DNA of 64,000 bases from positions 4,841-68,840 of the forward strand of contig DATJXC010000073.1 in the NCBI GenBank assembly GCA_035500495.1. Reading direction: 5' to 3'. The translations under genes were made by a program, and so were the position numbers. This DNA is from Gemmatimonadales bacterium (GTDB lineage: Bacteria; Gemmatimonadota; Gemmatimonadetes; Gemmatimonadales; GWC2-71-9). Numbering within the stretch: the stretch's first letter is position 1; every line of letters begins with the position of its first letter. Below are positions 36,424-52,623 of the stretch, piece after piece. The notes under the pieces were generated by a model. It was not told the origin of the DNA. It ran no database searches and saw nothing but the letters and a program-made list of their open reading frames with translations.

Positions 36424-36454
36424 CCCTCTCCCCTCTCCCTTCTCCCCTCTCTCT
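36424..36454. repeat. Tandem heptamer CCCTCTC x4 between convergent genes
   Basis: CCCTCTC CCCTCTC CCTTCTC CCCTCTC. Confidence 0.65.
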
Positions 36455-37362
36455 TACGCCGGTCGCGTCCCCGGCTTCCCCTCCTCCGGATTCCGGAATT
36501 GCCGGATCGTCTGGTATGCAAAATCGATGTCGGGACAGGCGGCGAACTCGTCCAACACATCCTGCCAGATCGCCTGTTCGCTGCCGCGTCGGTGGCGGGG
36601 TTGAATCAGATAGCGCATGGTCAGCCGCACCCCGATCTCCACGACGCTGGTGTATACGATCGGTGTAAGCCGCGTGTACGATATGAAGAACTGCCGTGAA
36701 GCCTCCAGCAGGTCCTTCTCCGCCTGCTCGGTGAGGTGCTCGGCGTGCTTCACGGCGATCCGCTCGAGGATCGCCTTGGCCAGCTTCCAGTTGCTTTCGA
36801 AGGTGACCACGACAGGGATCTCATTCCAGATGTAACGGAATCCCTTGTCGTAGTTGGCCACCGCCTCGGTGAACACCCTCCCATTGGGTATGTGGATGAT
36901 GCGTCCAGTGCTCTGGTCGGCATCCACCCAGTTGCCGATTTCGTTCAGCGTGAAGTTGAACACGTGCAGGTCGATCACGTCGCCGGCATTGGCGCCGATC
37001 TGGACGCGATCCCCCACCTCAAACGGCCGCCGCCAGACCAGGTAGATCCACCCCGCGAGGTTCACGATCGGATCGCGCAGCGCAATGGCCAGCCCGGCTG
37101 AGACGAGCCCCAGGAAGGTGGCCACGGCGGCCACGCTCTCCACCCAGATATGCCCGAGCAGCACCACGCCCAGGACGAACGCGAGGTAGGTGAGCGACTT
37201 GCGCCACCGGTATCGGGTCCAGGGGTCGCGGGAACGGCGATAGACCAGCGCCAGGACGAGCCGGTGCACCAACCACAGGCCCCCCACCGTGAGGAGGGTC
37301 TCCAACAACTTGCTCTGCACCCCCGGCGGGAGCGGGAGGTAGTCCTGGATCCAGTGGTCCAA
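36454..37362 (-). CDS. MscS small-conductance mechanosensitive channel
   Basis: GL.IALRD...N..GW.Y....RPF.VGDRVQIG...GDV, IIHIPN. Confidence 0.9.
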   Translation of the reverse strand: MDHWIQDYLPLPPGVQSKLLETLLTVGGLWLVHRLVLALVYRRSRDPWTRYRWRKSLTYLAFVLGVVLLGHIWVESVAAVATFLGLVSAGLAIALRDPIVNLAGWIYLVWRRPFEVGDRVQIGANAGDVIDLHVFNFTLNEIGNWVDADQSTGRIIHIPNGRVFTEAVANYDKGFRYIWNEIPVVVTFESNWKLAKAILERIAVKHAEHLTEQAEKDLLEASRQFFISYTRLTPIVYTSVVEIGVRLTMRYLIQPRHRRGSEQAIWQDVLDEFAACPDIDFAYQTIRQFRNPEEGKPGTRPA

Positions 37363-37447: not shown

Positions 37448-39748
37448 ATGGCCGTGACCAGCACCCAAATCTGCAGCCATTGCGGAGAGGAGATCTCGCC
37501 CGGCGCTCGATTCTGCGCCAAGTGCGGCTCCGACGTCTCCGGGCAGCAGGGGGGGGTGGCGACTGTTCACGTGGATTCGTCGCCATTCGCGACGATGACT
37601 CAGGCCGGCCTCCTCGAAGCCCTGCGCCAGGCTACGCTCGGCGAATACGAGCTGATGGGCGAGCTCGGGCGTGGTGGGATGGCGACCGTCTTCCTGGCTC
37701 ACGACATCGCGCTCGATCGCAAGGTCGCGATCAAGGTGATGTCGCCGCAGCTCTTGTCGGGCGAAGGCATGGCCGAGCGGTTCAAGCGGGAAGCCCGCAC
37801 CGCCGGCGCGCTCAGCCATCCTCACATCATCCCCATCTACGCCGTCAAGGAGTCGGGCCAGCTCCTCTACTTCGTGATGAAGTTTGTGGAGGGCCGGCCG
37901 CTCGACTCGATCATGAAGGAAGTCGGCCCGCTGCCGATCGCCATGGTACAGACGATCCTGCAGCAGGTCGGTTCCGCGCTGGGTTACGCGCATCGGCGTG
38001 GCGTCGTGCACCGCGACATCAAGCCGGCCAATATCATGCTCGACGCCGAAGGCTGGGCGGTCGTCACCGATTTCGGGATCGCCAAGGTGTCTGAGAAACA
38101 GGGGCTTACGATGACCGGGGCCACCATGGGCACCCCGTCCTACATGAGTCCCGAGCAGTGCGCGGCGAAGGAGCTGACCGGCGCCTCCGATCAGTACTCG
38201 CTCGGTATCGTGGCGTGGGAGATGCTGGCCGGAAAGCTCCCGTTCGTGGCCGAGTCGGTGATGGCGGTGATGTACGCGCACTTCAACGAGCCGCCGCCTC
38301 CGGTCCAGGATGTGCGCGCCGATTGCCCGCCCGAAATCGCGGCCGGGGTCATGCGGATGTTGGAGAAGGACCCGGTCGCCCGCTTCCCCAACATCGAAGC
38401 GGCGGTGGCGGCGATCGGGGGAGCACCGCTCGCGCCCGACGATCCGGTCCGCACGCAGATGATGACATTGGCGGCCGCGGGTGACAACCTGAAAGTGGCG
38501 CAGCGATTCTCCACTCCGATCAGCGGAACCCCGATCGGCGTGAAAGCCGGGGGCACGAGCGCCTCCGGCCGACAATCCGTCGCCTCGATCGTCATTTCGC
38601 CGATGCAGGTCACCGTAAGCGTCGGGGCCGCGGTGCAACTGCTGGCTACGCCCAAGGCTCGCGGCGGATCCACGATCGCCAACAAGCGGGTGACGTGGGC
38701 GTCCACCAACACCGGCGTGGCCAAGGTTTCGCCGTCGGGGCTGGTGACCGGCATTGGGCCGGGTGTTGTCACCATCACCGCGTCGACGGAAACGACGAGC
38801 GCCACGGCGACCATCACCGTCGTCGCCGAGCAGGCACGGCGACGTAAGGTGCTGTACGCCGTCGCCGCGGTGTTGCTGCTCGTCGCTGGCGCCGGTGCCT
38901 ACCTGTTCGGACCATGGTTCCCCGGCCACAACGTGGCGGGACCCGGTAGCGCGGCGGCCCCCGATTCAGCAACCGGGCACGTTGCCGCCGTGCCCAGCGC
39001 GCCGCCACCGACGCCGCCGGCAGCGCAACCGGAATCCACCGCGCCCTCCGCCCGACCGGCCGATCGCCGGGGTGCCCGGCAGGCCCCGCCGCCCGCACCT
39101 TCCACCGCTTCAGCGACCGCGGTGCGCGATAACGCCGACGCCGCCGCCGCGCGGACCGCCGCGCAAACCGCACATGATCAGGCCGTCGGAGCCGGGGCCC
39201 CTGCGCTGGATCTGACCGCCGGCGACGCCGAAGTGCGGACTGGAGATCTACTGGTCCAGCGTGGGCAGCCGCGGGATGCGATCGGCCACTTCAGCAATGC
39301 CATGGTGAGCTACAACGCTGCGGCCGCCCGGGCCCGCGCGGCCGCCTCGCAACAGGCCGCCCGTCCAGTCGAGCCGCCCCCGACGACCGCCCCGGTCACG
39401 CCAACCGCCGATCCGCGCCCCCAGATCCAGGCGGTGGTACAGGCGCAATTGCACGCCATCACGCAAGCCTTCGCCGCGCGGGACTTGAAGCAGCTTCAGA
39501 ACTCCTACCCGGGCATTTCCGCCGACAAGGTCGACGGGTTCAAGGAATTCTTCAAGAACGCTAGCGAAGTGACCGCCGTGCTAACGCCGGGTGAGATCCA
39601 GTGGGACGGCGACAGGGCGGAGGTGCCGATTACCGAAACGCTGCATTACCGCGACGGGGAAGGCAAGCACGAAGTCCCTGCCCAGAATCTGCGCGCCCAT
39701 CTCGAACGCCAGGCCAACGGGACCTGGCGTATCACCACCATCCAGTAG
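37448..39748 (+). CDS. Membrane Ser/Thr protein kinase: Zn ribbon, kinase, Big_2 Ig, TM, periplasmic helical + NTF2-like domain
   Basis: CSHC..CAKC; LGRGGM, VAIK, HRDIKPAN, DFG, GTPSYMSPEQ; V.W.S.N..VA.V...G Ig motif; TM after RRRK; start ATG 37448. Confidence 0.92.
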   Translation: MAVTSTQICSHCGEEISPGARFCAKCGSDVSGQQGGVATVHVDSSPFATMTQAGLLEALRQATLGEYELMGELGRGGMATVFLAHDIALDRKVAIKVMSPQLLSGEGMAERFKREARTAGALSHPHIIPIYAVKESGQLLYFVMKFVEGRPLDSIMKEVGPLPIAMVQTILQQVGSALGYAHRRGVVHRDIKPANIMLDAEGWAVVTDFGIAKVSEKQGLTMTGATMGTPSYMSPEQCAAKELTGASDQYSLGIVAWEMLAGKLPFVAESVMAVMYAHFNEPPPPVQDVRADCPPEIAAGVMRMLEKDPVARFPNIEAAVAAIGGAPLAPDDPVRTQMMTLAAAGDNLKVAQRFSTPISGTPIGVKAGGTSASGRQSVASIVISPMQVTVSVGAAVQLLATPKARGGSTIANKRVTWASTNTGVAKVSPSGLVTGIGPGVVTITASTETTSATATITVVAEQARRRKVLYAVAAVLLLVAGAGAYLFGPWFPGHNVAGPGSAAAPDSATGHVAAVPSAPPPTPPAAQPESTAPSARPADRRGARQAPPPAPSTASATAVRDNADAAAARTAAQTAHDQAVGAGAPALDLTAGDAEVRTGDLLVQRGQPRDAIGHFSNAMVSYNAAAARARAAASQQAARPVEPPPTTAPVTPTADPRPQIQAVVQAQLHAITQAFAARDLKQLQNSYPGISADKVDGFKEFFKNASEVTAVLTPGEIQWDGDRAEVPITETLHYRDGEGKHEVPAQNLRAHLERQANGTWRITTIQ

Positions 39749-39763
39749 CGCGAGCGGGGTCGC

Positions 39764-42700
39764 ATGCGAATCCGGCGGGCCGTCGTCGCCCTCGCAGCAG
39801 GTGCCCTCTTCGCCTGCACGACCGACAATGTGGTGGGGCCGAAGTCCGTCAAGGACCTGGTCGTTTCTCCCCCCAACCCGTCTCTCGTCGTCGGGGATAC
39901 GCTGATCCTCGCGGGGATCGCCACCGACGAGCACGGCGTGCAGTTCATCAGTACGGCCACTACCTGGCGGTCGAGCGATCCAGCGGTCGCCACGTTCGGC
40001 AGCGGGGGGCACCTGATCGCCGTGAGCCCGGGGACCACCACCGTCACCGCCACCCTGTCGGGTGTCTCGGCCACCACCACGGTGACCGTCACGCCGCCGC
40101 CCGCCATCGGCCTGAGCCGGGACAGCGTCGCATTCGCGACCATCGGGCACGGCACCGTGCCCGCCGCACAGACCGTGACCGTCGCCAACACGAGCGGGGG
40201 CACCCTGACCGGCCTCACCGACTCAATCGCCTACTCGGGAACCGACTCGAACTGGCTCCAGGTCGCGATTTCGAACCCCACCGCCCCCGACACCGTCACC
40301 CTGGCCCCGGTGCGCAGCGATCTCACGATCGGAACGCACACCGCCACCGTGTTCCTGCGGGCGCCCAAGGCCACCAACTCGCCCCAGATGGTTACCGTCA
40401 CCTACGTCCTCAGCGCGGGCGCGCCCGCGTCGGAGGTGATCGATTCGGGCAACGGCCAAGCCGCTCCGGTCAACACGGCGGTGCCGAAGGTCCCCGTGGT
40501 TCGGGTTCTCGATGCGTTCGCGAACCCGGTGCCGAGCGTACCCGTGACCTTCACGGTCCTCTCGGGCGGCGGCGTTGTAGTCCCGACGTCCGCCGTGCTC
40601 ACGGACGCCAACGGCCGAGCCCGGGTTACCTCCTGGACGCTCGGGACCAGTGTGGGCCCCGATTCGCTCACCGCGACGGCCGGGCCGCTGCCCTCGGCTC
40701 CCGTGATGTTCGTCGCGACCGCGATCGCCGGAGCGCCCGCCCACCTCCAGAAGGTGCTGGGCGACAGCCAGACCACATCCGTCGGGCTGAGCGTCCCCGC
40801 CGCTCCGACGGTCAAGGTCACCGATCAGTTCGGCAACCTGGTCGCCAATTCAGTGGTGACGTTCAGCGTGAAGTCCGGTGGCGGCAGCGTCACCGGAGCG
40901 ACCCCGACGACCGACGTAGCCGGTCAGGCGAGCGTGGGATCCTGGACCCTTGGAACGACCGCCGGGACACAACAGCTGCGGGCCGGGATCGCGACGGATT
41001 CGGTGTTCTTCACCGCGACGGCCACCCCCGATGCCGCCAGTCAGCTCACCCTCGTCACCGGGAACGGGCAGACCGCCACCGTCGGCACGGCGGTGCCCAT
41101 CGCGCCCAAGACGAAGGTGACGGATCAGTACGGCAATCCGGTGTCCGGCGTCGCGGTGACGTTCGCGATCGCTTCCGGCGGCGGCAGCGTCACCGGCGCG
41201 TCCGCCATCAGCGATGCGCTCGGTGAAGCAGCGGTCGGGAGCTGGACCCTCGGGACCAGCGCCGGTTCGAACAGCCTCACGGCCACCGCCCCGGGTCTCA
41301 CCGGCAGCCCTCTGACGTTCACGGCCACGGGAACGGCCGGTGCGGCGACACAGATCGCCCTCAACGCCGGGAACGGACAATCGGCCACGGTGAACACCGC
41401 GGTGGCCACCGCTCCGGCCGTCATCGTGGAGGATCAATTCGGCAACGCGGTCTCGGGAGTGAGCGTGACCTTCGCCGTGGCGTCGGGCGGTGGTACGGTG
41501 AATCCCACGACCGCCGTGCTGACCAACGCGAGCGGGATTGCCGCAGTCACCTCCTGGACGCTCGGCACCGCGGTCGGCTCGAACTCACTCACCGCCTCCT
41601 CGACCGGCCTCTCGGGCAGCCCCCTCACTTTCACCGCAACCGCCACGGCCGCGCCTGCCAGTCAGGTCGCCGTCAACGGCGGGAACGGCCAGTCGGCAAC
41701 GGTGAACACTGCCGTCGCGGTGGCGCCCTCGGTGATCGTGAAAGACCAGTTCGGCAACCCGGTGGCCGGCGTGAGCGTGACCTTCGCGGTGGCGAGCGGG
41801 GGGGGCAGCATCACCGTCGGAGCCGCGACCACTAACGCGAACGGGATCGCGACGGTCGGCAGCTGGACGCTCGGCACCACCGCCGGGAGCAATACCCTCA
41901 CCGCCACCTCCGGCAGCCTCACCGGCTCCCCCGTCACCTTCACCGCCACCGGGCTCCACGGCGCCGCGACGCAGATCGCGAAGTTCGCGGGCGACTCCCA
42001 GACCGCCGCGGTGGGCACCGCCGTGAGCACGCCGCCGGCCGCGGTCGTCCAGGATCAATTCGGCAATCCGGTTCCCGGCATCAGCGTCTCGTTCAGCGTG
42101 GGTTCGGGGGGCGGGAGTCTCACCGGGGGAGTCACGACGACCAACGCGAGCGGCATCGCCACGGTGGGAAGCTGGACCCTCGGCACCACCGCCGGCGCGA
42201 ACACGCTCGGCGCCACTTCGGTCGGCCTCTCCGGGAGTCCGCTCAGCTTCACCGCGACGGGGACTGCGGGCGCCGCGACGCAGATGGCGCTGAATGCGGG
42301 CAATGGCCAGACCGTGGCCGCCGGCAGCGCGGTTCCCATCGCTCCGTCGGTGACCGTCCGCGACCAGTTCAATAACCCCGTGGCGGGCGTCTCCGTGACC
42401 TTCGCCGTCGCCACGGGGGGCGGCAGTGTCACGGGCGGCAACGCCACGACCAACACGGTGGGCGTCGCGACAGTCGGCAGCTGGACGCTCGGCACCACGG
42501 CCGGCAGCAACTCCATCACGGCGACGTCGATCGGCCTCAGCGGCTCCCCGGTGAATTTCAGCGCGACCGGTACCGCCGGTGCGGCGACCCAGATCGCGCT
42601 GAACGCCGGGAACAACCAGTCGGCGACCGCCGGCACGCCGGTCGCGATCCCGCCGTCGGTGATCGTGAAGGACCAGTTCAACAACCCGGTGTCGGGAGTC

Positions 42701-45700
42701 GGCGTGACCTTCGCGGTCGCGACGGGGGGCGGCAGCGTCACGGGCGGCAGTACCACGACCAACGCGAGCGGGATCGCGACCGTCGGCAGCTGGACCCTGG
42801 GCACCACCGCGGGGACGAACACCCTCACCGCCACCTCCGGCAGCCTCACCGGCTCGCCCGTGACTTTCACCGCCACCGGCACCGCCGGCGGCGCGACGCA
42901 GGTCGCGCTCAACGCCGGTGACGGCCAGACCGCCGCTGTGGGAAGCGCCGTCGCCCTCCCGCCCTCGGTGATCGTCAAAGACGCGTTCAATAACCCGGTT
43001 TCGGGCGTGAACGTAACCTTCGCCGTTGTCACGGGCGGCGGCAGCGTCACAGGCGGGAGCGCCACCACCAACGCGGGCGGGATCGCGACGGTCGGCAGCT
43101 GGACTCTCGGCACGACGGCCGGGAGCAACACATTGAACGCCACCTCCGGTAGCCTGTCCGGTTCGCCGATTACCTTTACGGCGACGGCCACCGCGGGTGG
43201 CGCGACCCAGATCGTGCTGAACGCCGGGAACAACCAGTCGGCGACGGTCGGCACCGCAGTCACGATCCCACCGTCGGTGATCGTCAAGGACGCGTTCAAT
43301 AATCCCGTATCCGGGGTGAGCGTGACCTTCGGCGTCGCCACGGGCGGCGGCAGTCTCACAGGCGGCAGCGCCACGAGCAACGCGAGCGGGATCGCGACCG
43401 TCGGCAGCTGGACCCTGGGCACCACCGCGGGGACGAACACTCTCACCGCCACCTCCGGCAGCCTCACCGGGTCGCCCATCACCTTCACCGCTACGGGCAC
43501 CGCCAGCGGCGCGACGCAGATCGCGCTCAACGCCGGGAACAACCAGAGCGCGACGGTGGGGACCGCGGTGGCCGTGGCCCCATCCGTGATGGTGAAGGAC
43601 CAGTTCAACAACCCGGTGTCCGGAGTGTCGGTGACCTTCGCGGTCGCCACGGGGGGCGGCAGCGTCACGGGCGGTAGTGCCACGACCAATGCGAGCGGGA
43701 TCGCGACGGTCGGCAGCTGGACCCTTGGCACAACGGCCGGCAGCAATTCCCTGACGGCCACGTCCGGCAGCCTCACCGGCTCCCCGATCACCTTCACCGC
43801 CACCGGGACGGCCGGCGCCGCGACGCAGATGGCGCTGAATGCCGGGAACGGACAGGCGGCGACCGTGAACACGGCGGTCGCGGTGGCACCCTCGGTGATC
43901 GTGAAGGACCAGTTCAACAACCCGGTGTCGGGAGTCGGCGTGACCTTCGCGGTCGCGACGGGGGGCGGGAGCGTCACGGGCGGGGCGACGACGACGAACG
44001 CGAGCGGGATCGCGACGGTCGGCAGCTGGAGGCTCGGCACCGCGGCGGGAAGCAATTCGCTCACCGCCACGTCCGGGAGCCTGAACGGCTCGCCGGTCAC
44101 CTTCACCGCTACCGGGACCGCCGGCGGCGCGTCCCAGATCGCCACCTTCGCCGGCGACAGTCAGAGCGCGATCGTCGGCACGGTGGTCGGCGTCCCCCCC
44201 GCCGTCATCGTCAAGGACCAGTTCGGCAATCCGGTGGCGGGGGTTGCGGTGACCTTCGCGGTGGCCTCCGGAGGCGGCAGCATCACCGGAGCGAGCCCCA
44301 GCTCGAACGCGAGCGGCGTGGCTACGGTGGGCAGCTGGACCCTGGGTGCCGTCGCTGGCAAGAACACCCTGACCGCCACCTCGAGCGGCCTCACCGGGTC
44401 GCCGCTCACCTTCACGGCGACCGGCCTTGCGAGCGCCGCGACGACGATGGCCGCGGTGAGCGGCACGGGCCAGACCGACACGATCGGCGCGACCCTCGCC
44501 TCGCCCTACGTCGTGATCGTCACCGACGGGGTGAATCCGGTCTCCGGGGTCCCGGTCACCTGGGCCGTGGTTTCGGGCGGGGGATCGCTCACGGCGGTGG
44601 TCGCGACGACCGACGTGAACGGCCACTCCAGCGCGAAGCAGATCCTCGGGCTCGCGGGCGGCGCCCAGGCGGTCACGGCCTCGGTGGGCGGTCTCACGGG
44701 GTCGCCCGTGACGTTCACCTCCACGGCCACGCACGGGAACGCCGCGAGCATCGCCCTGAAGGACGGTTCCGCGCAGAGCGACACCATCGGCGCCACGCTG
44801 GCCAATCCCTACCGCGTCACCGTGAGCGATCGCGGCGGGAATCCCGTGCCGGGCGTCACCGTCAGTTGGGCGGTCAATTCGGGCGGCGGCTCGATCACGG
44901 CCTCCTCGAGCAGCGACGCGAGCGGCATCGCCACCGCAACCCGCACCCTCGGCACGACAGTCGGGGTCACCGCTGACCAGGCCACGGCCACGGGGCTCGC
45001 CGGGTCGCCGGTCGCGTTCAGCGCCACCATCACGAACGGGCAGGCGAAGACGATCGCGCTCACAGGCGGGAACGCGCAGACCGACACCGTCGGCAAGACG
45101 CTGCCCGTGCCCTACACCGTCACCATCACAGACCGCGGCGGCAATCCGGTTTCGGGCTACACCGTCACCTGGGCCGTGACCTCCGGTGGCGGCTCGATTA
45201 CGCCCACCTCCATCTCCAACGCCGCCGGCGTCGCGAGCGCCTCCCGGACGCTGGGGCCGACGGCCGGCGCGCAGACCGCGACGGCGAGTGGCACGGGGCT
45301 CACGGGATCACCGGTAACGTTCACGGCGACGGGTGTGAACGGCGCGGCGGCGACTATCGCCCTTTCGGCCGGAAACGCGCAGACCGATACCATCGGCGCC
45401 ACGCTCGCCACGCCCTACAGCGTGCTCGTTACCGATGCCGGGAGCAATCCCGTGGCCGGGGTGACCGTCACGTGGGCGGCGACGGGCAGCGTTGGGTCGA
45501 TCACGCCGTCCTCGATCACCAACGCGAGCGGCATTGCGACCGCCACGCGCGTTCTTGGTAGCCCGCTTGGCGCCCAAACGGCAACCGCCACCGTGACCGG
45601 GCTCACCGGCTCTCCGGTGACCTTCACCGCCACCGCGACAGCCGGGAACGCGAAGACGATCGCCCTGAACGGCGGCAACACCCAGACCGATACCATCGGG

Positions 45701-48700
45701 GCGACGCTCGCCACGCCGTATGCCGTGCTCGTTACCGACCGTCTTGGCAATCCGGTGTCCGGAACCACGGTCTCCTGGGCGGCGACCGGCGGCGGTGGCT
45801 CGATCACCCCGTCCTCGATCTCTAACGCGAGCGGTCTTGCCACTGCGACCCGGGTGCTCGGTTCCGTCCTCGGCAGCGAGACCGCCTCCGCCACGGTGTC
45901 CGGACTCACCGGGTCCCCGGTGAATTTCAGCGCGACCGCCACGGCCGGGCATGCTACGACCATCGCGCTCGCCGGCGGGAATTCCCAGACCGACACCATC
46001 GGAGCGACGCTCGCCACGCCCTACACCGTGCACGTTACCGACCGCCTCGGGAACGATGTCTCCGGGACCACGGTGACCTGGGCGGTGACCGGCGGCGGCG
46101 GCTCGATCACCTCGTCGTCGATCTCGGACGCCGGCGGGATCGCCAGCGCCACGCGGACACTCGGGAACGCCACCGGGGCCAACGCGCAGACGGCGACCGC
46201 CACGGGGACGGGTCTCACGGGGTCGCCGGTGACCTTCCTCGCCACGGCGACGGCCGGTCTGGCGGCGAACATCGCCCTCAACGCCGGAAACGCCCAGACC
46301 GACACCATCAACGCCACCCTGCCGACGCCGTACTCGGTCCTCGTCACCGATCGGGGCGGGAACCCCGTGTCCGGCACCACCGTGACCTGGGGCGTGACGG
46401 GCGGCGGCGGCTCGATCACGCCGTCTTCGAGCTCCAACGCGAGCGGCATCGCGAGCGCCACTCGGGTCCTCGGGACGACCGTGGGAGCCGGCTTCCAGAC
46501 CGCTCAGGCCGGCGTGACCGGGCTCGCCGGATCTCCGGTGACGTTCAGCGCCAGCGCGATCGCCGGAAACGCCACGACAATGGCGTTGAACGCTGGAGAC
46601 GCGCAGACCGATACGATTGGCGCCACCCTCGCCACCGCGTACTCCGTCCTCGTGACCGATCGACTGGGAAACCCCGTGGCCAACCAGACGATCGCCTGGG
46701 CCGCGACGAGCGGTGGGGGCAACATGACGCCGGCCTCGAGCTCGACCAACGCCCTGGGCATCGCCTCCTCGGTACGGACCCTTGGAACGAGCCTCGGATC
46801 CCAGACGGCGAACGCGACGGCCGCGCTCACCGGCTCGCCGATCGGCTTCACCGCCACCGCGACCCACGGCAATCCGGCCGCCATCTCCGTCAGCGGCGGT
46901 GACGCGCAGACTGACACGATCGGCGCGACGCTCGCCATCCCCTACAGCGTGACCGTGACGGACCGCGCGGCCAACCCCGTCGCGGGCGTGACCGTGAACT
47001 GGAGCGCAGGGGGCGGTGGATCGATCACCACATCGTCCGTAACGAGCGGGGGCGGCGTCGCGACCGCCAGCCGCACCCTTGGAACGACTGCCGGGACGCA
47101 AACGGCGCAGGCCGACCCGGGCTTCGGCGTGACGCCCGCTTCCTTCACCGCGACGGCCATGCCCGGCAATGCCAAGACCATCGCGCTGAACGCCGGCAAC
47201 GCCCAGATCGACACGATCGGCGCGACGCTGGCGACGCCGCTCAGCGTGCTCGTGACCGACCGTGGCGGCAATGCCGTCCCCGGAGTGACCGTCACCTGGA
47301 CCGGCTCGGGTGGCGCGACCCCGTCCACTGGGTCCAACACCACTAACGGCAGCGGGATCGCGAGCGTCTCCTTGACGCTCGGGACCGTGGCCGGGGGCCA
47401 GGGCGCGACGGCGACTTCGGGCGTCCTCACCGGTTCCCCGGTGAACTTCAGTGAGACCGGGACGGCCGGTCACGCGACGCAGATCGCCATCAACGGCGGC
47501 AATGGACAATCGGCGACGGTCAACACGAATGTGGCGACGGCCCCGTCGGCGATCGTGCGCGACCGCGCCAATAACCTGGTTCAGGGAACCGGGGTCACCT
47601 TCGCCGTGACGGGCGGGGGCGGGAGCGTCAGCCCGACCTCGGCGATCCTGACGAACTCGAGCGGCATCGCGCAGGTGACGTCCTGGACCCTCGGCACCGT
47701 CGCCGGGACCAACAACAACACCCTCTCGGCGACGTCGGGCACCCTCAGTGGAAGCCCCCTCGCCTACACCGCCTCCGCCACGCCGGGCGCCGTCAGCGCG
47801 GCCCAGTCCACCGTGGCGGCCGGGACCGCCTCGATCACCGCCTGCAGCACGAGCTGCGTCGCGGGGACGACAGCGTCGGTCATCACCGTCACGGCAAAGG
47901 ATCAGTTCGGTAATCCGGAAGGTGCAGGCCTGACCGTGAACCTGAGCGGAAGCACGGGAACGAACAACAGCTTCTCCCCCTCGGCCAGCGGGACTACCAA
48001 CGGGAGCGGGCAATTCACCGCCACCTTCAGTTCCACGAAGGCGGAAGCCAAGACGATCATCGCTTCGGTCGGAGGCACGACCGTCACCACACAGCCGACC
48101 GTGACCGTGAACCCGGACGTCGTGCTTCTCACCCTGTCCACGTTCACGGCCGGGACGGCCAGCATCACGGCCTGCTCAACGAGCTGCGTCGCCGGTAGTA
48201 CCGCCTCCACCCTGACCGCGACGGTAAAGGATCAGTTCTCGAATCCAATCAGCGGGAAGACGGTGACACCGAGTTGCTCCGTCGGCACGAGCTGCACCTT
48301 CTCGCCTACCAGCGGATCCACCAACGGCAGTGGCGTATTCCAGTCGAACTTCAACTCGACGCTGGCTCAAGCGAAGACGATTCAGGCCGCGGTGACGGGC
48401 TCCGGGACAATCACGCAAACGGCCGGAGTCACTGTGAACGCGGCGGCGCCGTTCTCGGTATCGGTAAGCAATCAGGCACAGGCGGCGCGCATCACGACCG
48501 GTGTTGGCACTCGGCCTACCTACACGGTGTTCGACCAGTTCTCGAACCCCGTCCCCACAACGGCGTTCACCGTCGCCGCGGCGGGTGGCGGGAGTGTCAG
48601 TCCGACTTCGGGGTCAACGAATGCCAGTGGCCAGGTCACCCTGACCAGCTGGACCATGGGCAGCAGCGGGACTGAAACCGCTCGCGGCGGGTTCGTGAAT

Positions 48701-49039
48701 ACGGCGACGCTCACGGCCGGCTCGGCGAATGGAGTCGCGACTGACACCGGGTTCTACTCGTATGCGAACGACGTGCAGCCCGTCTACAACGCGAACTGCA
48801 CCAGCTGCCACGGCATCGCCCCGATCCTGACGACCGGCAACTCCTACAGCCAGACCGTCAACGTCGCCTCGACCTGCGTCGCCGGTACACGAATTGTTCC
48901 CAGCTCGGCATCGACGAGCGTGCTCTATCTGCGGGTGACCGGAGGGAGTTGTGGCGTGATGCCGCCGAGTGGGCAGATATCCGCTCCCCAGCAGACCATC
49001 CTTCGAGCGTGGATCAACCGGAGCGCGCTCAACAACTAA
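39764..49039 (+). CDS. Giant (3091 aa) lipoprotein with ~29 Ig-like domains and a C-terminal monoheme cytochrome c domain
   Basis: Lipobox LFAC (Cys18); Big_2 and BACON-like domains, ~27 Big_1-like repeats; CTSCH at 48797-48811 and distal MPP at 48959. Confidence 0.9.
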   Translation: MRIRRAVVALAAGALFACTTDNVVGPKSVKDLVVSPPNPSLVVGDTLILAGIATDEHGVQFISTATTWRSSDPAVATFGSGGHLIAVSPGTTTVTATLSGVSATTTVTVTPPPAIGLSRDSVAFATIGHGTVPAAQTVTVANTSGGTLTGLTDSIAYSGTDSNWLQVAISNPTAPDTVTLAPVRSDLTIGTHTATVFLRAPKATNSPQMVTVTYVLSAGAPASEVIDSGNGQAAPVNTAVPKVPVVRVLDAFANPVPSVPVTFTVLSGGGVVVPTSAVLTDANGRARVTSWTLGTSVGPDSLTATAGPLPSAPVMFVATAIAGAPAHLQKVLGDSQTTSVGLSVPAAPTVKVTDQFGNLVANSVVTFSVKSGGGSVTGATPTTDVAGQASVGSWTLGTTAGTQQLRAGIATDSVFFTATATPDAASQLTLVTGNGQTATVGTAVPIAPKTKVTDQYGNPVSGVAVTFAIASGGGSVTGASAISDALGEAAVGSWTLGTSAGSNSLTATAPGLTGSPLTFTATGTAGAATQIALNAGNGQSATVNTAVATAPAVIVEDQFGNAVSGVSVTFAVASGGGTVNPTTAVLTNASGIAAVTSWTLGTAVGSNSLTASSTGLSGSPLTFTATATAAPASQVAVNGGNGQSATVNTAVAVAPSVIVKDQFGNPVAGVSVTFAVASGGGSITVGAATTNANGIATVGSWTLGTTAGSNTLTATSGSLTGSPVTFTATGLHGAATQIAKFAGDSQTAAVGTAVSTPPAAVVQDQFGNPVPGISVSFSVGSGGGSLTGGVTTTNASGIATVGSWTLGTTAGANTLGATSVGLSGSPLSFTATGTAGAATQMALNAGNGQTVAAGSAVPIAPSVTVRDQFNNPVAGVSVTFAVATGGGSVTGGNATTNTVGVATVGSWTLGTTAGSNSITATSIGLSGSPVNFSATGTAGAATQIALNAGNNQSATAGTPVAIPPSVIVKDQFNNPVSGVGVTFAVATGGGSVTGGSTTTNASGIATVGSWTLGTTAGTNTLTATSGSLTGSPVTFTATGTAGGATQVALNAGDGQTAAVGSAVALPPSVIVKDAFNNPVSGVNVTFAVVTGGGSVTGGSATTNAGGIATVGSWTLGTTAGSNTLNATSGSLSGSPITFTATATAGGATQIVLNAGNNQSATVGTAVTIPPSVIVKDAFNNPVSGVSVTFGVATGGGSLTGGSATSNASGIATVGSWTLGTTAGTNTLTATSGSLTGSPITFTATGTASGATQIALNAGNNQSATVGTAVAVAPSVMVKDQFNNPVSGVSVTFAVATGGGSVTGGSATTNASGIATVGSWTLGTTAGSNSLTATSGSLTGSPITFTATGTAGAATQMALNAGNGQAATVNTAVAVAPSVIVKDQFNNPVSGVGVTFAVATGGGSVTGGATTTNASGIATVGSWRLGTAAGSNSLTATSGSLNGSPVTFTATGTAGGASQIATFAGDSQSAIVGTVVGVPPAVIVKDQFGNPVAGVAVTFAVASGGGSITGASPSSNASGVATVGSWTLGAVAGKNTLTATSSGLTGSPLTFTATGLASAATTMAAVSGTGQTDTIGATLASPYVVIVTDGVNPVSGVPVTWAVVSGGGSLTAVVATTDVNGHSSAKQILGLAGGAQAVTASVGGLTGSPVTFTSTATHGNAASIALKDGSAQSDTIGATLANPYRVTVSDRGGNPVPGVTVSWAVNSGGGSITASSSSDASGIATATRTLGTTVGVTADQATATGLAGSPVAFSATITNGQAKTIALTGGNAQTDTVGKTLPVPYTVTITDRGGNPVSGYTVTWAVTSGGGSITPTSISNAAGVASASRTLGPTAGAQTATASGTGLTGSPVTFTATGVNGAAATIALSAGNAQTDTIGATLATPYSVLVTDAGSNPVAGVTVTWAATGSVGSITPSSITNASGIATATRVLGSPLGAQTATATVTGLTGSPVTFTATATAGNAKTIALNGGNTQTDTIGATLATPYAVLVTDRLGNPVSGTTVSWAATGGGGSITPSSISNASGLATATRVLGSVLGSETASATVSGLTGSPVNFSATATAGHATTIALAGGNSQTDTIGATLATPYTVHVTDRLGNDVSGTTVTWAVTGGGGSITSSSISDAGGIASATRTLGNATGANAQTATATGTGLTGSPVTFLATATAGLAANIALNAGNAQTDTINATLPTPYSVLVTDRGGNPVSGTTVTWGVTGGGGSITPSSSSNASGIASATRVLGTTVGAGFQTAQAGVTGLAGSPVTFSASAIAGNATTMALNAGDAQTDTIGATLATAYSVLVTDRLGNPVANQTIAWAATSGGGNMTPASSSTNALGIASSVRTLGTSLGSQTANATAALTGSPIGFTATATHGNPAAISVSGGDAQTDTIGATLAIPYSVTVTDRAANPVAGVTVNWSAGGGGSITTSSVTSGGGVATASRTLGTTAGTQTAQADPGFGVTPASFTATAMPGNAKTIALNAGNAQIDTIGATLATPLSVLVTDRGGNAVPGVTVTWTGSGGATPSTGSNTTNGSGIASVSLTLGTVAGGQGATATSGVLTGSPVNFSETGTAGHATQIAINGGNGQSATVNTNVATAPSAIVRDRANNLVQGTGVTFAVTGGGGSVSPTSAILTNSSGIAQVTSWTLGTVAGTNNNTLSATSGTLSGSPLAYTASATPGAVSAAQSTVAAGTASITACSTSCVAGTTASVITVTAKDQFGNPEGAGLTVNLSGSTGTNNSFSPSASGTTNGSGQFTATFSSTKAEAKTIIASVGGTTVTTQPTVTVNPDVVLLTLSTFTAGTASITACSTSCVAGSTASTLTATVKDQFSNPISGKTVTPSCSVGTSCTFSPTSGSTNGSGVFQSNFNSTLAQAKTIQAAVTGSGTITQTAGVTVNAAAPFSVSVSNQAQAARITTGVGTRPTYTVFDQFSNPVPTTAFTVAAAGGGSVSPTSGSTNASGQVTLTSWTMGSSGTETARGGFVNTATLTAGSANGVATDTGFYSYANDVQPVYNANCTSCHGIAPILTTGNSYSQTVNVASTCVAGTRIVPSSASTSVLYLRVTGGSCGVMPPSGQISAPQQTILRAWINRSALNN
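40421..48751 (+). repeat. Tandem array of ~100-103 aa Big_1-like repeats (~309-nt unit in the A block)
   Basis: 13 type A (SWTLG), 10 type B (TDTIGATL..PY..V.W), 1 A, 2 type C (CSTSC), 1 A-like; counted by eye. Confidence 0.9.
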
Positions 49040-49044
49040 ACTCA

Positions 49045-49138
49045 GTGGGAAGTACGAATGCGAAGTGCGAAATATCAATGGGATGCCGAGATTCGACCTC
49101 CCATTTTAATTTCGCACTTCGCGTTTCGTACTTCGCAC
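49045..49138. repeat. Long heptamer-unit hairpin between convergent genes, likely bidirectional terminator/REP-like element
   Basis: GTGGGAAGTACGAATGCGAAGTGCGAAAT..AATGGGA pairs with TCCCATT..ATTTCGCACTTCGCGTTTCGTACTTCGCAC. Confidence 0.8.
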
Positions 49139-50434
49139 TCAGAAGTTGTACTCAATCCCTCCCGTCCACGTTGCCGACGGCTGCATCCCGGAATTCCGCA
49201 GCGGGAACAGTCCGTTCGCCACGATCCGCATCCCCGCCCGCGTCTGGAACTTGAACCCGACCGCGAGCGACAGGTAATTGTCTTCCGAGCCCGGGATGTT
49301 CGTGACGTTCACCGATCGCGTATAGGGATACTGGTACTCGACGGGCGGAGGGATCTGCAGGGCGCTCTCGCCAACCCGCCATTCGCCCAAAACATCCAGC
49401 GCCATCGTGGCAAAGGACGACACCAGCTGATCGAACCCCGCTACCATGCTGAGCGAGTTGTTCTGGTCTTTCGCGTCCCGGAGCGTGTAGCCGAAGTTGA
49501 CGTGGGGGTTGAAGTTCCCCCACGTGGCCGAGACGATGCCGAGCCCGCGGCCCATGAACGCCCCCGAGCCCAGCAAATTGTCGGCGTCGCCGGTCGGGAA
49601 CCGCGCGTCGACGAACATGCCGACGCCCACGTGGCTCGTCTGCGCGATGTTGATCTTGAGTCGGGCTCCCACGTCCCCGAGACCCGACGCGGTCCCTTGC
49701 GTCGAGGACGTCGCGGTGAGCGTCGGGTTTGCCGTGTCGCCGAAGAAGTGCACGTTCGTTCCCGAAATCGGCAGGATCTGCGCCAGGCTCGTGCCGCTCT
49801 CACTCACGTGCACGAACGGGACCACCACGCCCAGGTCGAGCCCGTCCACGATCCCCCAGGTCAGGCTCGCCGTCGACACGATCGTGCTCGCGTTGAACGC
49901 GACCTGCACCTGCACCAGGTCGTTCTCGAACGTCGGCATCCCCATCGTATCGAGCGGGGGCACGTTCTCGTGCGTGAAATTGAATTGTAGGTTCGAGAGG
50001 GGGATCCCCCGGAGCCGCTCGAAGGTGGTGCTGGTGACGTTCAGACTCGCGAAGAACCGCCCTTTCCCGAGGGTCTGGGCGCGCTCGGCGAAGATCGGGC
50101 CGGCGGAGGTCGAGGTCTTGATCGGCACCCCGCCCTCGAATCGGAACGTCGTGCCCGAGGAGGACGACGCGATCGGGGTGTTGGAGACGCTGATGGCGAT
50201 GGAGCTCGCGATCAGGCCGATCAGCACTCCGCCATTCTGCTCCGCCGCCGGGATGAAGTGCTCCCCGTGGCCGGCCAGTGAGCCGCCGAGGCACAGCGGC
50301 TGACCGCAGTCCCCGAACGTGAACAGGTCGTGCTCGATCTCCTGGCGGAGGCCCTGAGCCGCAAGCGCGGCGGACATGCCGGTAACGAGCGAGACGAGGG
50401 CCACCAAGGATCCAACGACGCGAGGTCGTTGCAT
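49139..50434 (-). CDS. Outer-membrane beta-barrel 'transporter' (SphA/MetA-pathway-like) with N-terminal extension
   Basis: Sec signal from ATG 50434; G.GD...R.K..., RFPTG, amphipathic strands, C-terminal YNF; family call tentative. Confidence 0.7.
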   Translation of the reverse strand: MQRPRVVGSLVALVSLVTGMSAALAAQGLRQEIEHDLFTFGDCGQPLCLGGSLAGHGEHFIPAAEQNGGVLIGLIASSIAISVSNTPIASSSSGTTFRFEGGVPIKTSTSAGPIFAERAQTLGKGRFFASLNVTSTTFERLRGIPLSNLQFNFTHENVPPLDTMGMPTFENDLVQVQVAFNASTIVSTASLTWGIVDGLDLGVVVPFVHVSESGTSLAQILPISGTNVHFFGDTANPTLTATSSTQGTASGLGDVGARLKINIAQTSHVGVGMFVDARFPTGDADNLLGSGAFMGRGLGIVSATWGNFNPHVNFGYTLRDAKDQNNSLSMVAGFDQLVSSFATMALDVLGEWRVGESALQIPPPVEYQYPYTRSVNVTNIPGSEDNYLSLAVGFKFQTRAGMRIVANGLFPLRNSGMQPSATWTGGIEYNF

Positions 50435-50552
50435 GCACGCTCCTGCTGGGGTCAGGGGTCGGAGGCCAATGATACGACCGGGTGTGCGGGCCCGCAAACG
50501 GCCCCTTCGGCTTGACGAATGAATCCGGAGACCCGGATATATTGGATCCATC

Positions 50553-52586
50553 ATGCCCGACCCGACCTGTTCCCGTTGCGGCACCGCGGTGCCACCGGGC
50601 GCCCGGAACTGCCAGAACTGCGGCGCCGACATCACGGGACAGCAGGGTCAGGTCGCCACCGCCTACGTCGCCCCGACCCTGGCCGTTCCCCCGGACCTGC
50701 GCGAGGCCCTCGCCCGCGCCACGATCGGCGAATATGAGATCAAGGGTGAGCTGGGCCAGGGCGGGATGGCGTCGGTGTTTCTGGCCCACGAGATCGCCCT
50801 CGATCGCAAAGTCGCCATCAAGGTGATGGCCCCCTCCCTCGCCTCAGTGCCGGGGATGGTGGAGCGGTTCAAGCGGGAGGCACGCACCGCGGCCGCGCTC
50901 TCGCATCCCCACATCATTCCCATCTACGCGGTGAAGGAAGGCGCGGGGGTCGTCTTCTTCGTCATGAAGTTCGTGGAAGGCCGGTCGCTCGAGTCGGTGA
51001 TCCGGCAGGTGGGACAGCTGCCGCTCGCCCTGGCGCAGGGGCTCCTCTACCAGGTGGGCCAGGCCCTGGGTCACGCCCACCGCCGCGGGGTCATTCACCG
51101 CGACGTGAAACCGGCCAACGTGATGCTCGACGCCGACGGCTGGGCGGTGGTCACCGATTTCGGCATCGCCAAGGTGGCGGAGAAACAGGGGCTGACGCAG
51201 ACCGGGGCCACAATCGGGACGCCGTCTTACATGAGCCCCGAACAGTGCGCGGCCAAACGGGAGCTCACCGGGGCGTCGGATCAGTATTCGCTCGGCGTCG
51301 TCGCCTACGAAATGCTCGCGGGGCAGCTGCCCTTCTCCGCCGAAACGACGGTCGGGCTGCTCTACGCCCACGTGCATGAGCCCCCGCCCCCGATCAGCGA
51401 GCTGCGCCCCGATTGTCCTCCGGAAGTCGCCGACGCGTTGATGCGGATGCTCGAGAAAGATCCCGAAGCCCGCTGGCCCGACGTCGAGACCGCGGTCGGG
51501 GCGTTGGGCGGGGCTCCCCTCAGTCACGACGATCCGATTCACGCCCAGCTCGTAGAGCTGGCGGGAGGACGCTCCCCCTCTCCGGCCGAGACGATTCGAA
51601 CGCCGGTCAGTCCCGTGCCTCCTGGGAAGGCGGCGCCGCGAGCGCCGACCCGGACTTCGGCACCGCCCGGGCGTCGCCCCCCGACCCGCACGGCGGCCCC
51701 GCTCGCGAAAGGCGCCGCCGCCCAGGCGGCACCAGCACGGCGGGCCAGCTGGGTCCTTTGGGCGATTCCGGCCGTTGCGCTGGTCGCGGCGGGAGTGTGG
51801 TGGAAGCTGGGACGCGGGACGGGGGAAGTGGGACGGGGGGGACTCGGCGCGAGTCCCGAGTCACTGCCGACGGTTGCAGCGGTCACCCCCCCCCATCAAG
51901 GGCCGGAGACGGTCGTGGTCGTGCAGCGCCCGCCGGTCGAGACGGTGAAGGTGACGGCACCGGTCGTGCCGTCGCAGCTCGCCTCTCCCGGAAGATCTGT
52001 CGGCGGGGCGCCGCCCGACGTCTCGTTCCGGATGGCCGAAACTCGCGCGCTCTCGAACCGGATGCGCGCGGCTTCCGCCGGCGCCACACCACCAGAGCTG
52101 GCCGGCGGCGACGCCCTCGCCAGGACGGCGGAAAGTCTCTCCACGGCGGGACGTCCTCGACTGGCGACAACCAAGCTGCAGGCCGCCGAACGGTCATGGG
52201 CCTCGGCGGAAGCCGCGGCGAATCAGCGTCCCCATCCCCAGGCTCAAACCGAGTCCGCCCCTCGCATCCCGGCCGAGCGGCTGGCGATCGAGTTCGCCAC
52301 GGCGTTCGAGGAAAAGCGCATCGATCACTTGCGGCAGGCCTACCCCGGGATCACTTCCCAGCAGATCGACGAATGGAACCAGCTGTTCATGCGGGCCAAG
52401 GGGTTGCGGATGCGGCTGCGGGCCACGATCGCGCAGCCCACCGGAGGGGGCGAGGCGCAGTCCCAGTTCGACGGATTTTACGAGTACCAGGATCTGAACT
52501 CCGGAGCGAACCAGCACCAGAACGTGTCGTGGACGGCGACGCTGACCGATACACCATCAGGCTGGCGGATCACAGGCTTGCGGTAG
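50553..52586 (+). CDS. Membrane Ser/Thr protein kinase, paralog of 37448-39748 lacking Big_2
   Basis: CSRC..CQNC, LGQGGM, HRDVKPAN, DFG, GTPSYMSPEQ, TM, homologous C-terminal domain. Confidence 0.92.
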   Translation: MPDPTCSRCGTAVPPGARNCQNCGADITGQQGQVATAYVAPTLAVPPDLREALARATIGEYEIKGELGQGGMASVFLAHEIALDRKVAIKVMAPSLASVPGMVERFKREARTAAALSHPHIIPIYAVKEGAGVVFFVMKFVEGRSLESVIRQVGQLPLALAQGLLYQVGQALGHAHRRGVIHRDVKPANVMLDADGWAVVTDFGIAKVAEKQGLTQTGATIGTPSYMSPEQCAAKRELTGASDQYSLGVVAYEMLAGQLPFSAETTVGLLYAHVHEPPPPISELRPDCPPEVADALMRMLEKDPEARWPDVETAVGALGGAPLSHDDPIHAQLVELAGGRSPSPAETIRTPVSPVPPGKAAPRAPTRTSAPPGRRPPTRTAAPLAKGAAAQAAPARRASWVLWAIPAVALVAAGVWWKLGRGTGEVGRGGLGASPESLPTVAAVTPPHQGPETVVVVQRPPVETVKVTAPVVPSQLASPGRSVGGAPPDVSFRMAETRALSNRMRAASAGATPPELAGGDALARTAESLSTAGRPRLATTKLQAAERSWASAEAAANQRPHPQAQTESAPRIPAERLAIEFATAFEEKRIDHLRQAYPGITSQQIDEWNQLFMRAKGLRMRLRATIAQPTGGGEAQSQFDGFYEYQDLNSGANQHQNVSWTATLTDTPSGWRITGLR

Positions 52587-52593
52587 TAGAAGA

Positions 52594-52623
52594 CGGAGCT
52601 GACTCTTCCGCGAGTCAGCTCCG
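52594..52623. terminator. Perfect 12-bp hairpin between convergent genes
   Basis: CGGAGCTGACTC-ttccgc-GAGTCAGCTCCG; no U-tract. Confidence 0.65.

Follow-up and report, generated by a model that had tools for sequence, protein, structure and literature searches.

A Hanks-type kinase and a FapF-like outer-membrane barrel as the core of a candidate envelope-sensing module in Gemmatimonadales

Here we have analyzed a four-gene locus in the genome (3.36 Mb, 68% GC; assembly GCA_035500495.1) of an uncultured Gemmatimonadales bacterium from a wetland metagenome. The locus lies within a stretch of 64,000 nt, hereafter the window (contig DATJXC010000073.1, positions 4,841 to 68,840), and comprises a gene for a Hanks-type Ser/Thr kinase (kin1), a gene for a giant predicted lipoprotein ending in a putative cytochrome c domain, a gene for a predicted outer-membrane beta-barrel, and a second kinase gene (kin2), as listed in Table 1. 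All four had been delineated in an initial annotation of the window, whose coordinates agree with ours and whose account of the layout also holds: kin1 and the lipoprotein gene share a strand and are separated by exactly 15 nt, the barrel gene converges on the lipoprotein gene, and kin2 is divergent from the barrel gene. That annotation was likewise right to call the second kinase closely related to the first, as the two kinase domains are 73% identical and the next paralogue in the genome reaches 51%. The kin1/lipoprotein junction and the lipoprotein/hairpin/barrel junction are both covered by contigs from three wetland metagenome runs with 0-1 differences. Gene calling by GC content at third codon positions was abandoned, as it gave no separation of sense from antisense frames in a genome of this composition.

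Table 1. Coordinates of the genes, domains and intergenic elements of the locus (positions in the window; aa, amino acids; TM, transmembrane segment)
Feature	Position	Strand	Remarks
MscS-like channel gene	36454-37362	-	302 aa; PF00924 E 4e-11, NF007662 6e-14; divergent from kin1
kin1	37448-39748	+	766 aa; zinc ribbon, Pkinase, Big_2, one TM, NTF2-like C-terminal domain (predicted)
kin1 Hanks Ser/Thr kinase domain	37646-38386	+	
kin1 Big_2	38579-38821	+	
kin1 single TM	38849-38905	+	
kin1 NTF2-like domain (predicted)	39371-39745	+	after 170-aa Pro/Ala-rich periplasmic linker
Giant lipoprotein gene (predicted)	39764-49039	+	3091 aa; lipobox Cys18, Big_2, Big_1/Invasin_D3 repeats, cytochrome end
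C-terminal mono-heme class-I-type cytochrome c domain of giant lipoprotein (predicted)	48737-49036	+	alignment and profile matches
Intergenic hairpin, lipoprotein/barrel	49040-49138		99 nt, palindromic; folding energy on both strands
Outer-membrane beta-barrel gene (predicted)	49139-50434	-	431 aa; AlphaFold2 and Foldseek
Barrel/kin2 divergent intergenic region	50435-50552		118 nt; between barrel start ATG and kin2
kin2	50553-52586	+	677 aa; zinc ribbon, Hanks kinase, TM, NTF2-like domain (predicted); without Big_2
kin2 TM	about 51744-51800	+	
kin2 NTF2-like domain (predicted)	52209-52583	+	after 149-aa periplasmic linker
Hairpin 3' of kin2	52594-52623	+	12-bp GC-rich stem; possible terminator

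Predicted products of the four genes

Both kinases match Pfam Pkinase (PF00069) far above its cut-off of 31.7 bits (kin1, 156.6 bits, E 1e-45; kin2, 161.3 bits, E 3.9e-47), and the GxGxxG, VAIK, HRDIKPAN, DFG and SPE motifs are intact in each. Kin1 further matches Zn_Ribbon_1 (1e-8), an N-terminal zinc ribbon of the form CxxC...CxxC, and Big_2 (4e-9); kin2 has the same layout without the Big_2 domain. Because it lies between the kinase domain and the only transmembrane segment, the Big_2 domain of kin1 is placed on the cytoplasmic side, an unusual placement for a domain of this kind. Kinases related to kin1 carry one to three Big_2 domains before the transmembrane segment and up to four after it (loci L036, L037 and L042), and the Big_2 domain of kin1 is 31-40% identical to the N-terminal Big_2 of the lipoprotein. 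Across the genome as a whole, Hanks-type kinase loci number at least 55, or roughly one every 60 kb, often in tandem clusters (three or four on contigs C8, C87 and C88).

The C-terminal domains of the two kinases did not match each other in a direct BLAST comparison at 1e-3, and no Pfam family matched them above its cut-off. A hidden Markov model (HMM) built from the tails of 61 orthologous kinases, in turn, matches the kin1 and kin2 tails at E 1e-30 and 1e-34, so that the two tails can be considered the same domain; among the at least 55 Hanks kinases of this genome, kin1 and kin2 are the only ones that the HMM matches. The AlphaFold2 model of the domain (~120 aa; 36-sequence alignment; predicted local distance difference test score, pLDDT, of 93) has the element order H-H-H-E5 and a cone fold. 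Foldseek relates it to the CaMKII hub, to SnoaL/ketosteroid-isomerase-like proteins and to the NTF2 domain that the anti-sigma factor RsgI9 carries, at E-values from 1e-5 to 1e-4, and the sequence profile of the kinase tail also finds NTF2-like chains in the PDB. Sequence profile and structural model thus agree in predicting that the C-terminal domains belong to the NTF2-like superfamily, and given a single transmembrane segment and a cytoplasmic kinase domain in the predicted topology, they would lie in the periplasm, each at the end of a Pro/Ala-rich linker of 150-170 residues. The initial annotation had given the kinases periplasmic receiver domains; this label should be dropped in favor of NTF2-like sensor domains as the predicted ectodomains.

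The barrel gene has a longest open reading frame that would start at a GTG at 50635 and overlap kin2; this start was rejected for the ATG at 50434, on account of the signal peptide and of homologues of 425-431 aa. Its product carries a signal peptide and a Ser/Thr-rich linker, and the C-terminus reads ...IEYNF, ending in Phe. Most family-invariant residues, among which several His and Cys residues stand out, fall in an N-terminal pre-barrel segment (LFTFGxCGxxxCL...HGxHF together with a helix). We found no Pfam or NCBIfam match for the barrel, and PF13557 (Phenol_MetA_deg) was absent even at E 10; this family is reached by 4 of 44 barrel relatives, at best with 2.3e-8. It is the AlphaFold2 model (pLDDT 76; predicted template-modelling score 0.76) that points to a class: the top 20 Foldseek matches in the PDB are all either FapF or the Pseudomonas putida COG4313 channel (E 1.6e-11 to 6e-8), with E 1.6e-11 for FapF, 1.4e-8 for the COG4313 channel and TM(target) scores of 0.63-0.70. 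The N-terminal helix (residues 57-85) and the conserved pre-barrel segment are modelled at a low pLDDT of 56-69. By this model the protein is predicted to be an outer-membrane-type barrel of the small plugged-channel fold class of FapF and COG4313; it is single-copy in this genome.

The giant protein opens with a signal peptide that ends in a lipobox, MRIRRAVVALAAGALFA-C18 (LFA-C18), which fits the pattern [LVI][ASTG][GA]C, and the context ..FAC-TTD..IGP is kept in its orthologues; it is thus a predicted bacterial lipoprotein. Identity as an inverse autotransporter (type Ve) was considered and rejected, there being no inverse autotransporter barrel domain and the N-terminus being a lipoprotein signal. 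Pfam recognizes one N-terminal Big_2, 26 Big_1 stretches (E 1.6e-163) and two Invasin_D3 domains, amounting to some 26-30 Ig-like repeats. Two internal tandem arrays, at 41724-44424 (309-nt period, 8.7 copies) and 44678-46678 (303-nt period, 6.6 copies), show that the stalk has grown by module duplication. The protein may be exposed at the surface, as about 30 Ig domains, or ~100 nm, do not fit the periplasm.

The last ~100 aa of the lipoprotein contain CTSCH at 48797-48811 and a Met-Pro axial-ligand motif from 48959, and end in ...ALNN. An alignment of this domain across 24 species (alignment A2) has C21, C24, H25, C47, C72, M75, P76, W92 and I93 invariant, with a second Cys pair, a WI..GA helix and the terminal NN kept. 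When compared with the PDB, the family profile finds FoxE (E 1.2e-5) and cytochrome c6 (E 4.6e-4). Of the 24 family members, 14 are recognized by Pfam Cytochrome_CBB3; the copy in the window stays below the curated thresholds, with 21.7 bits against 27 for PF13442 and 16.1 against 22 for PSCyt1. The genome also encodes cytochrome c maturation proteins (PF01578, two copies). The term heme-tipped, coined for this protein in the initial annotation, finds support in the invariant CxxCH, Met-Pro and second Cys pair and in the profile matches to FoxE and cytochrome c6, and we regard the heme tip as a well-supported prediction rather than a demonstrated fact. In some members of the same alignment (L127, L078, L052 and L091) the heme-attachment site takes the form Cx4CH, for example CATSGCH or CAFSSCH.

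Conservation of the kinase-barrel pair and its variable partners

The initial annotation had treated the four genes as one cassette whose gene types should recur together. To place them in the phylum, we looked at three sets of loci. In the 20-kb neighborhoods of 20 relatives, the barrel adjoins a kin1-type kinase in every case. A second set covers 80 further species; the 40 of its loci that extend for 4 kb or more to each side all count as kinase-adjacent: 36 have a kinase domain at least 55% identical, three have a more divergent, convergent kinase, and one has a 24-repeat lipoprotein that extends to the end of the locus. Finally, in an even sample of 250 Gemmatimonadota genomes from 107 genera, the barrel occurs in 90 genomes, the NTF2 tail in 100 and both in 79 (odds ratio 48, p 5e-33, uncorrected for phylogeny).

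The two are also close together on the chromosome. In 74 of the 90 barrel-bearing genomes, no more than 12 kb separates the barrel from an NTF2-kinase tail, and the 16 exceptions consist of five fragmented assemblies and 11 genomes of a single genus (g79) in another family. The g79 barrels have an S58 peptidase and a GMC oxidoreductase as neighbors, which gave no clue to function. At closer range, 58 of 105 barrel places are less than 500 nt from an NTF2 tail, 39 of them convergent and 19 co-directional in the order kinase then barrel, with gaps of 6-50 nt. That two different gene arrangements occur shows that the linkage outlived rearrangement. With so many Hanks kinase loci in the genome, adjacency to just any kinase would mean little; it is on the specificity for one subfamily, together with the multiple gene orders, that chance adjacency arising from kinase abundance was rejected. 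The arrangement recurs in many species and so is not itself a product of chance, and a pair kept through several rearrangements across some 35 genera is good evidence of functional linkage.

As far as gene neighborhoods can tell, then, functional linkage between kinase and barrel is well supported, and the conserved unit in Gemmatimonadales is a Hanks kinase with a predicted periplasmic NTF2-like tail plus a predicted plugged barrel. It is this core that co-occurs, in nearly every barrel-bearing Gemmatimonadales genome, and not a fixed set of four genes.

The lipoprotein is far more variable. In 27 of the 90 sampled barrel-bearing genomes (~30%), a protein with the cytochrome domain is encoded at most 3 kb from the barrel, convergently in 21, and its cytochrome end usually abuts the 3' end of the barrel gene. 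Within the phylum sample, each of the 11 best matches to the cytochrome domain lies beside a barrel gene and converges on it; more distant matches are mostly stand-alone proteins of 150-250 aa elsewhere in the genomes. Barrel-adjacent lipoproteins range from about 230 to 3165 aa, and in the barrel tree the association with a lipoprotein appears in both main clades, with at least 10 gains or losses. The lipoprotein is accordingly best described, from these distributions, as a facultative third member, and the giant of the window is an extreme-length case of a variable family. Where the order is kinase-lipoprotein-barrel, six species have the kinase and lipoprotein genes spaced by -25 to +26 nt; such gaps suggest co-transcription of the two genes, and the same is suggested for kin1 and the giant lipoprotein gene here. 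A look for RNA evidence of operon structure turned up no run that contains the locus. Small lipoprotein-like proteins that consist of little more than the cytochrome c domain are widespread in the phylum and have no link to the barrel (for example L040:1893-2459, G096:C125 and G199:C4); these stand-alone cytochromes may represent the ancestral form of the giant's tip.

The second kinase, for its part, was listed in the initial annotation as a part of the system in its own right, a claim that does not extend beyond close relatives: a kinase in the kin2 position beside the barrel was seen only in the genus of the window and a few close relatives. With the lipoprotein facultative and kin2 so restricted, the idea of a fixed four-gene cassette was given up. 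In some other genera a 363-aa kinase (Pkinase E 4.6e-21) sits in the place of kin2, just upstream of the barrel and co-directional with it (L055:8341-9432, L058 and L138). Relatives that have no cytochrome lipoprotein often have two tandem paralogous barrels between two kinases instead (L075, L080, L086, L088, L076, L082, L089 and G057), and none of the seven two-barrel loci in the 80-locus set has a convergent cytochrome neighbor. These relatives raise a reading, which we considered, in which the giant lipoprotein stands in for a second barrel; in the barrel tree, the barrel of the window falls outside both paralogue clades, on a long branch.

Envelope sensing, competing readings and known parallels

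We favor reading the locus as a lineage-specific envelope-sensing module of Gemmatimonadales, and would put the probability of this at roughly 0.5. At its core, an inner-membrane Hanks Ser/Thr kinase would be paired with a plugged outer-membrane barrel acting as its input device, and the state of the outer membrane or of the exterior would be converted into Ser/Thr phosphorylation in the cytoplasm. Two forms of input are equally compatible with the data. The conserved N-terminal periplasmic/plug segment of the barrel could contact the NTF2 head on its long linker, a logic akin to that of FecA-FecR and RcsF/OMP-IgaA; alternatively, the barrel could admit a small hydrophobic or redox-active ligand that is then bound in the NTF2 pocket. 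Channels of the COG4313 group let hydrophobic molecules through, and a hydrophobic pocket is typical of NTF2 folds. Where the lipoprotein is present, its cytochrome end would probably dock on or in the barrel, and the Ig stalk would serve as an adhesin-like or a redox- or metal-probing antenna. In this genome, the stalk has been expanded to ~30 Ig domains by tandem duplication and the kinase duplicated to give kin1 and kin2. The initial annotation had the barrel exporting or docking a surface probe; the predicted FapF/COG4313-like fold is compatible with either role, and a relay from surface probe through barrel to kinase is something that we infer.

A number of points weigh against envelope sensing. 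The flow of information from barrel to kinase, rather than the reverse, is an assumption. Convergent genes are not co-transcribed, and it is therefore position that ties the barrel to the lipoprotein and, in most loci, to the kinase. The g79 barrels (32-35% identity) have no kinase nearby; conversely, 21 sampled genomes have NTF2-type kinases and no barrel, and 68 of 150 NTF2 matches lie away from any barrel, which indicates that the sensor domain can work without this barrel. The lipoprotein is absent from ~70% of barrel loci and so is not essential to the core. With regard to mechanics, a folded heme domain is unlikely to pass through a FapF-class (12-strand) barrel, and a ~100-nm stalk does not fit the periplasm. 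Neither an FHA protein nor any other candidate substrate was found on this contig; the genome has 10 FHA domains. Furthermore, this genome is very rich in kinases, and sequences that share ancestry do not count as independent samples.

Envelope sensing could also be cast in a more far-reaching form, as a surface-signalling pathway based on a Hanks kinase. This would be a trans-envelope sensor of a new class, Rcs-like in its logic but made of unrelated parts. Here the FapF-like barrel would hold the cytochrome end of a projecting Ig stalk, and the redox or metal-ligation state of the heme, or mechanical load, would be passed through the N-terminal segment of the barrel to the NTF2 head and on to the kinase. 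We regard this version as rather doubtful.

Of the other explanations, the one that survives best, unlikely as we hold it to be, makes the locus a secretion or surface-display module in which the barrel exports or anchors the lipoprotein or another unfolded substrate and the kinases regulate it via cytoplasmic substrates, much as PpkA gates the H1 type VI secretion system (H1-T6SS). Big_1 repeats are passengers that intimin and invasin export through 12-stranded barrels, and their presence in the stalk is in keeping with such a role. So is the gene order, as the 3' end of the lipoprotein gene abuts the barrel gene in 21 of the 27 lipoprotein-bearing loci and kin1 appears to be co-transcribed with the lipoprotein gene (15 nt apart here, -25 to +26 nt elsewhere). 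The best structural match of the barrel, FapF, is moreover a polypeptide secretion channel (PMC5557850). However, ~70% of barrel loci lack the lipoprotein and yet have the kinase, and no alternative candidate substrate is conserved among the loci; a periplasmic NTF2 domain on a long linker looks built for periplasmic input, and a covalently hemylated domain would be a poor substrate for a narrow barrel.

The cytochrome invites a different explanation, a split porin-cytochrome redox device of the Cyc2 or FoxE kind that acts on an Fe(II)-type extracellular or periplasmic substrate, with the kinases as loose neighbors; this we consider improbable. The best solved relative of the cytochrome profile is indeed an Fe(II) oxidase, FoxE (E 1.2e-5), and the DNA comes from a wetland metagenome. 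Several His and Cys residues of the barrel are invariant, and barrel and cytochrome genes are consistently paired wherever the lipoprotein exists. Against this, a single heme at the end of up to ~30 Ig domains cannot make an electron conduit, and the barrel goes without a cytochrome partner in ~70% of loci, where the kinase is nearly always there. Apart from the cytochrome lipoprotein, we found no respiratory or electron-transfer genes in the locus.

Inherited synteny without functional coupling, for which the tandem clusters of a kinase-rich phylum and the restriction of the evidence to one phylum and mostly one order, with tests uncorrected for phylogeny, might be cited, is very improbable, as the neighbor is always of one NTF2-tailed subfamily whose tail occurs in this genome only in the two barrel-flanking kinases, and as adjacency persists over 35 genera, with barrel identity down to ~40% and in at least three gene orders (tight kinase-then-barrel operons included), among flanking genes that are not conserved outside the genus.

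Returning to envelope sensing, the closest parallel in logic is the RcsF/OMP-IgaA-Rcs system of Enterobacteria, in which a lipoprotein and a barrel relay the state of the outer membrane or surface to inner-membrane phospho-signalling (PMC4942254). Rcs shares with the locus a lipoprotein, a barrel and an inner-membrane phospho-signalling component, and the C-terminal domain of RcsF sits at the periplasmic face of the barrel. It differs in its general porins (OmpA/C/F, assembled by BAM), its small lipoprotein and its His-Asp phosphorelay, and there is no sequence homology; the module described here would instead combine Hanks kinases with a FapF/COG4313-like barrel of its own and with a lipoprotein that measures 230-3165 aa and bears an Ig stalk and a heme. 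To our knowledge, TagQR-PpkA is the only pathway studied in depth in which an outer-membrane lipoprotein serves to activate a Hanks kinase. In this pathway (TagQRST-PpkA of the Pseudomonas aeruginosa H1-T6SS), the kinase is activated through an outer-membrane lipoprotein complex upon envelope events (PMC13713981), and PpkA, like kin1 and kin2, is an inner-membrane Hanks kinase with a periplasmic sensor domain. The periplasmic domain of PpkA is vWA-like, however, the pathway has no barrel partner, and its output, Fha1 and the T6SS, is encoded alongside; on this contig there is no FHA or T6SS gene near the locus.

For the barrel, FapF offers a precedent as a plugged 12-stranded amyloid secretion channel whose pore is gated by a plug helix together with a linker and an N-terminal extension in the periplasm (PMC5557850). 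FapF also has a trimeric periplasmic coiled coil. The barrel of the window resembles FapF (PDB 5O65) and the COG4313 channel (PDB 4RL8) in its predicted layout, where a periplasmic/plug segment at the N-terminus is joined by a linker to a small barrel; it is ~130 aa longer than the FapF barrel domain, possibly has 12-14 strands, and carries an invariant Cys-hairpin/HGxHF motif of its own. No fap or aromatic-degradation genes were found near it. As in FecA-FecR-FecI, the N-terminal extension of the barrel would talk to the periplasmic C-terminal domain of an inner-membrane transducer, although Fec relies on a TonB-dependent 22-stranded transducer and an anti-sigma/extracytoplasmic function (ECF) sigma pair, where the output here would be a Ser/Thr kinase.

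The lipoprotein, too, has partial counterparts. It shares Big_1/Invasin_D3 arrays, a distinct C-terminal tip and the tie between a small barrel and Big_1 passengers with intimin and invasin, and Big_2-type Ig-like repeats and the lipoprotein nature with leptospiral Lig proteins; it differs in that its stalk has no barrel of its own, the barrel being a separate convergent gene of another fold family, and its tip is a predicted c-type cytochrome and not a lectin-like domain or adhesin. The tip in turn has CxxCH, a downstream Met-Pro and a C-terminal WI..GA helix in common with FoxE and PSCyt1. FoxE, however, is a soluble periplasmic di-heme protein, and here a single domain with an extra invariant Cys pair and a terminal ...NN would sit on an Ig-repeat lipoprotein.

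None of the systems compared unites these components, and a literature search on Hanks kinases in Gemmatimonadetes brought up no account of a module of this kind; the combination of parts is probably undescribed. Gemmatimonadota, Acidobacteriota and Myxococcota are, as far as we know, very rich in Hanks-type kinases, almost none of which has a known input. One kinase subfamily can now be tied to a specific outer-membrane barrel, often together with a heme-tipped Ig-stalk lipoprotein, and this gives a testable hypothesis for how a Ser/Thr kinase might read the outer membrane or the exterior in a diderm. The pairing would also add to the uses for which FapF/COG4313-class barrels are known. It further marks out a lipoprotein family, made of an Ig stalk and a predicted cytochrome c tip, that spans a more than ten-fold length range and may be relevant to surface redox or metal sensing in soils and wetlands.

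Flanking genes, hairpins and a repeat element

The genes on either side of the locus are of a housekeeping kind, with an EamA transporter, a pyridoxal phosphate (PLP) decarboxylase and the MscS-like channel on one side and a ComM/YifB-like ATPase and NadA on the other; comparison with the loci of relatives gave the lack of conservation outside the genus mentioned above. Within that genus, the MscS-like gene is syntenic with kin1. Of 80 related loci, 13 have it divergently paired with a kin1 orthologue, one of them from a more distant genus (L092); the pairing is recorded for L072, L075, L076, L080, L082, L084-L089 and L092, and the gene possibly belongs to the module as one more, loosely associated member.

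The initial annotation had bounded the block by this MscS gene and a terminator hairpin. Both hold as boundaries and nothing more; the hairpin 3' of kin2 (dG -26.5, z -5.3) has no T-run, and a consensus terminator scan made no call for it. The hairpin between the lipoprotein and barrel genes is much more stable, with dG of -56 and -58 kcal/mol and z of -9.7 and -10.4 on the two strands, and is probably a bidirectional terminator. Its arms correspond to a REP-like repeat that occurs about 15 times in the genome (for example at C133:95016-95061 and C19:61549-61576). The element, TTTCGCACTTCGCGTTTCGTACTTCGCAC, is AT-rich within its GC-rich host genome.

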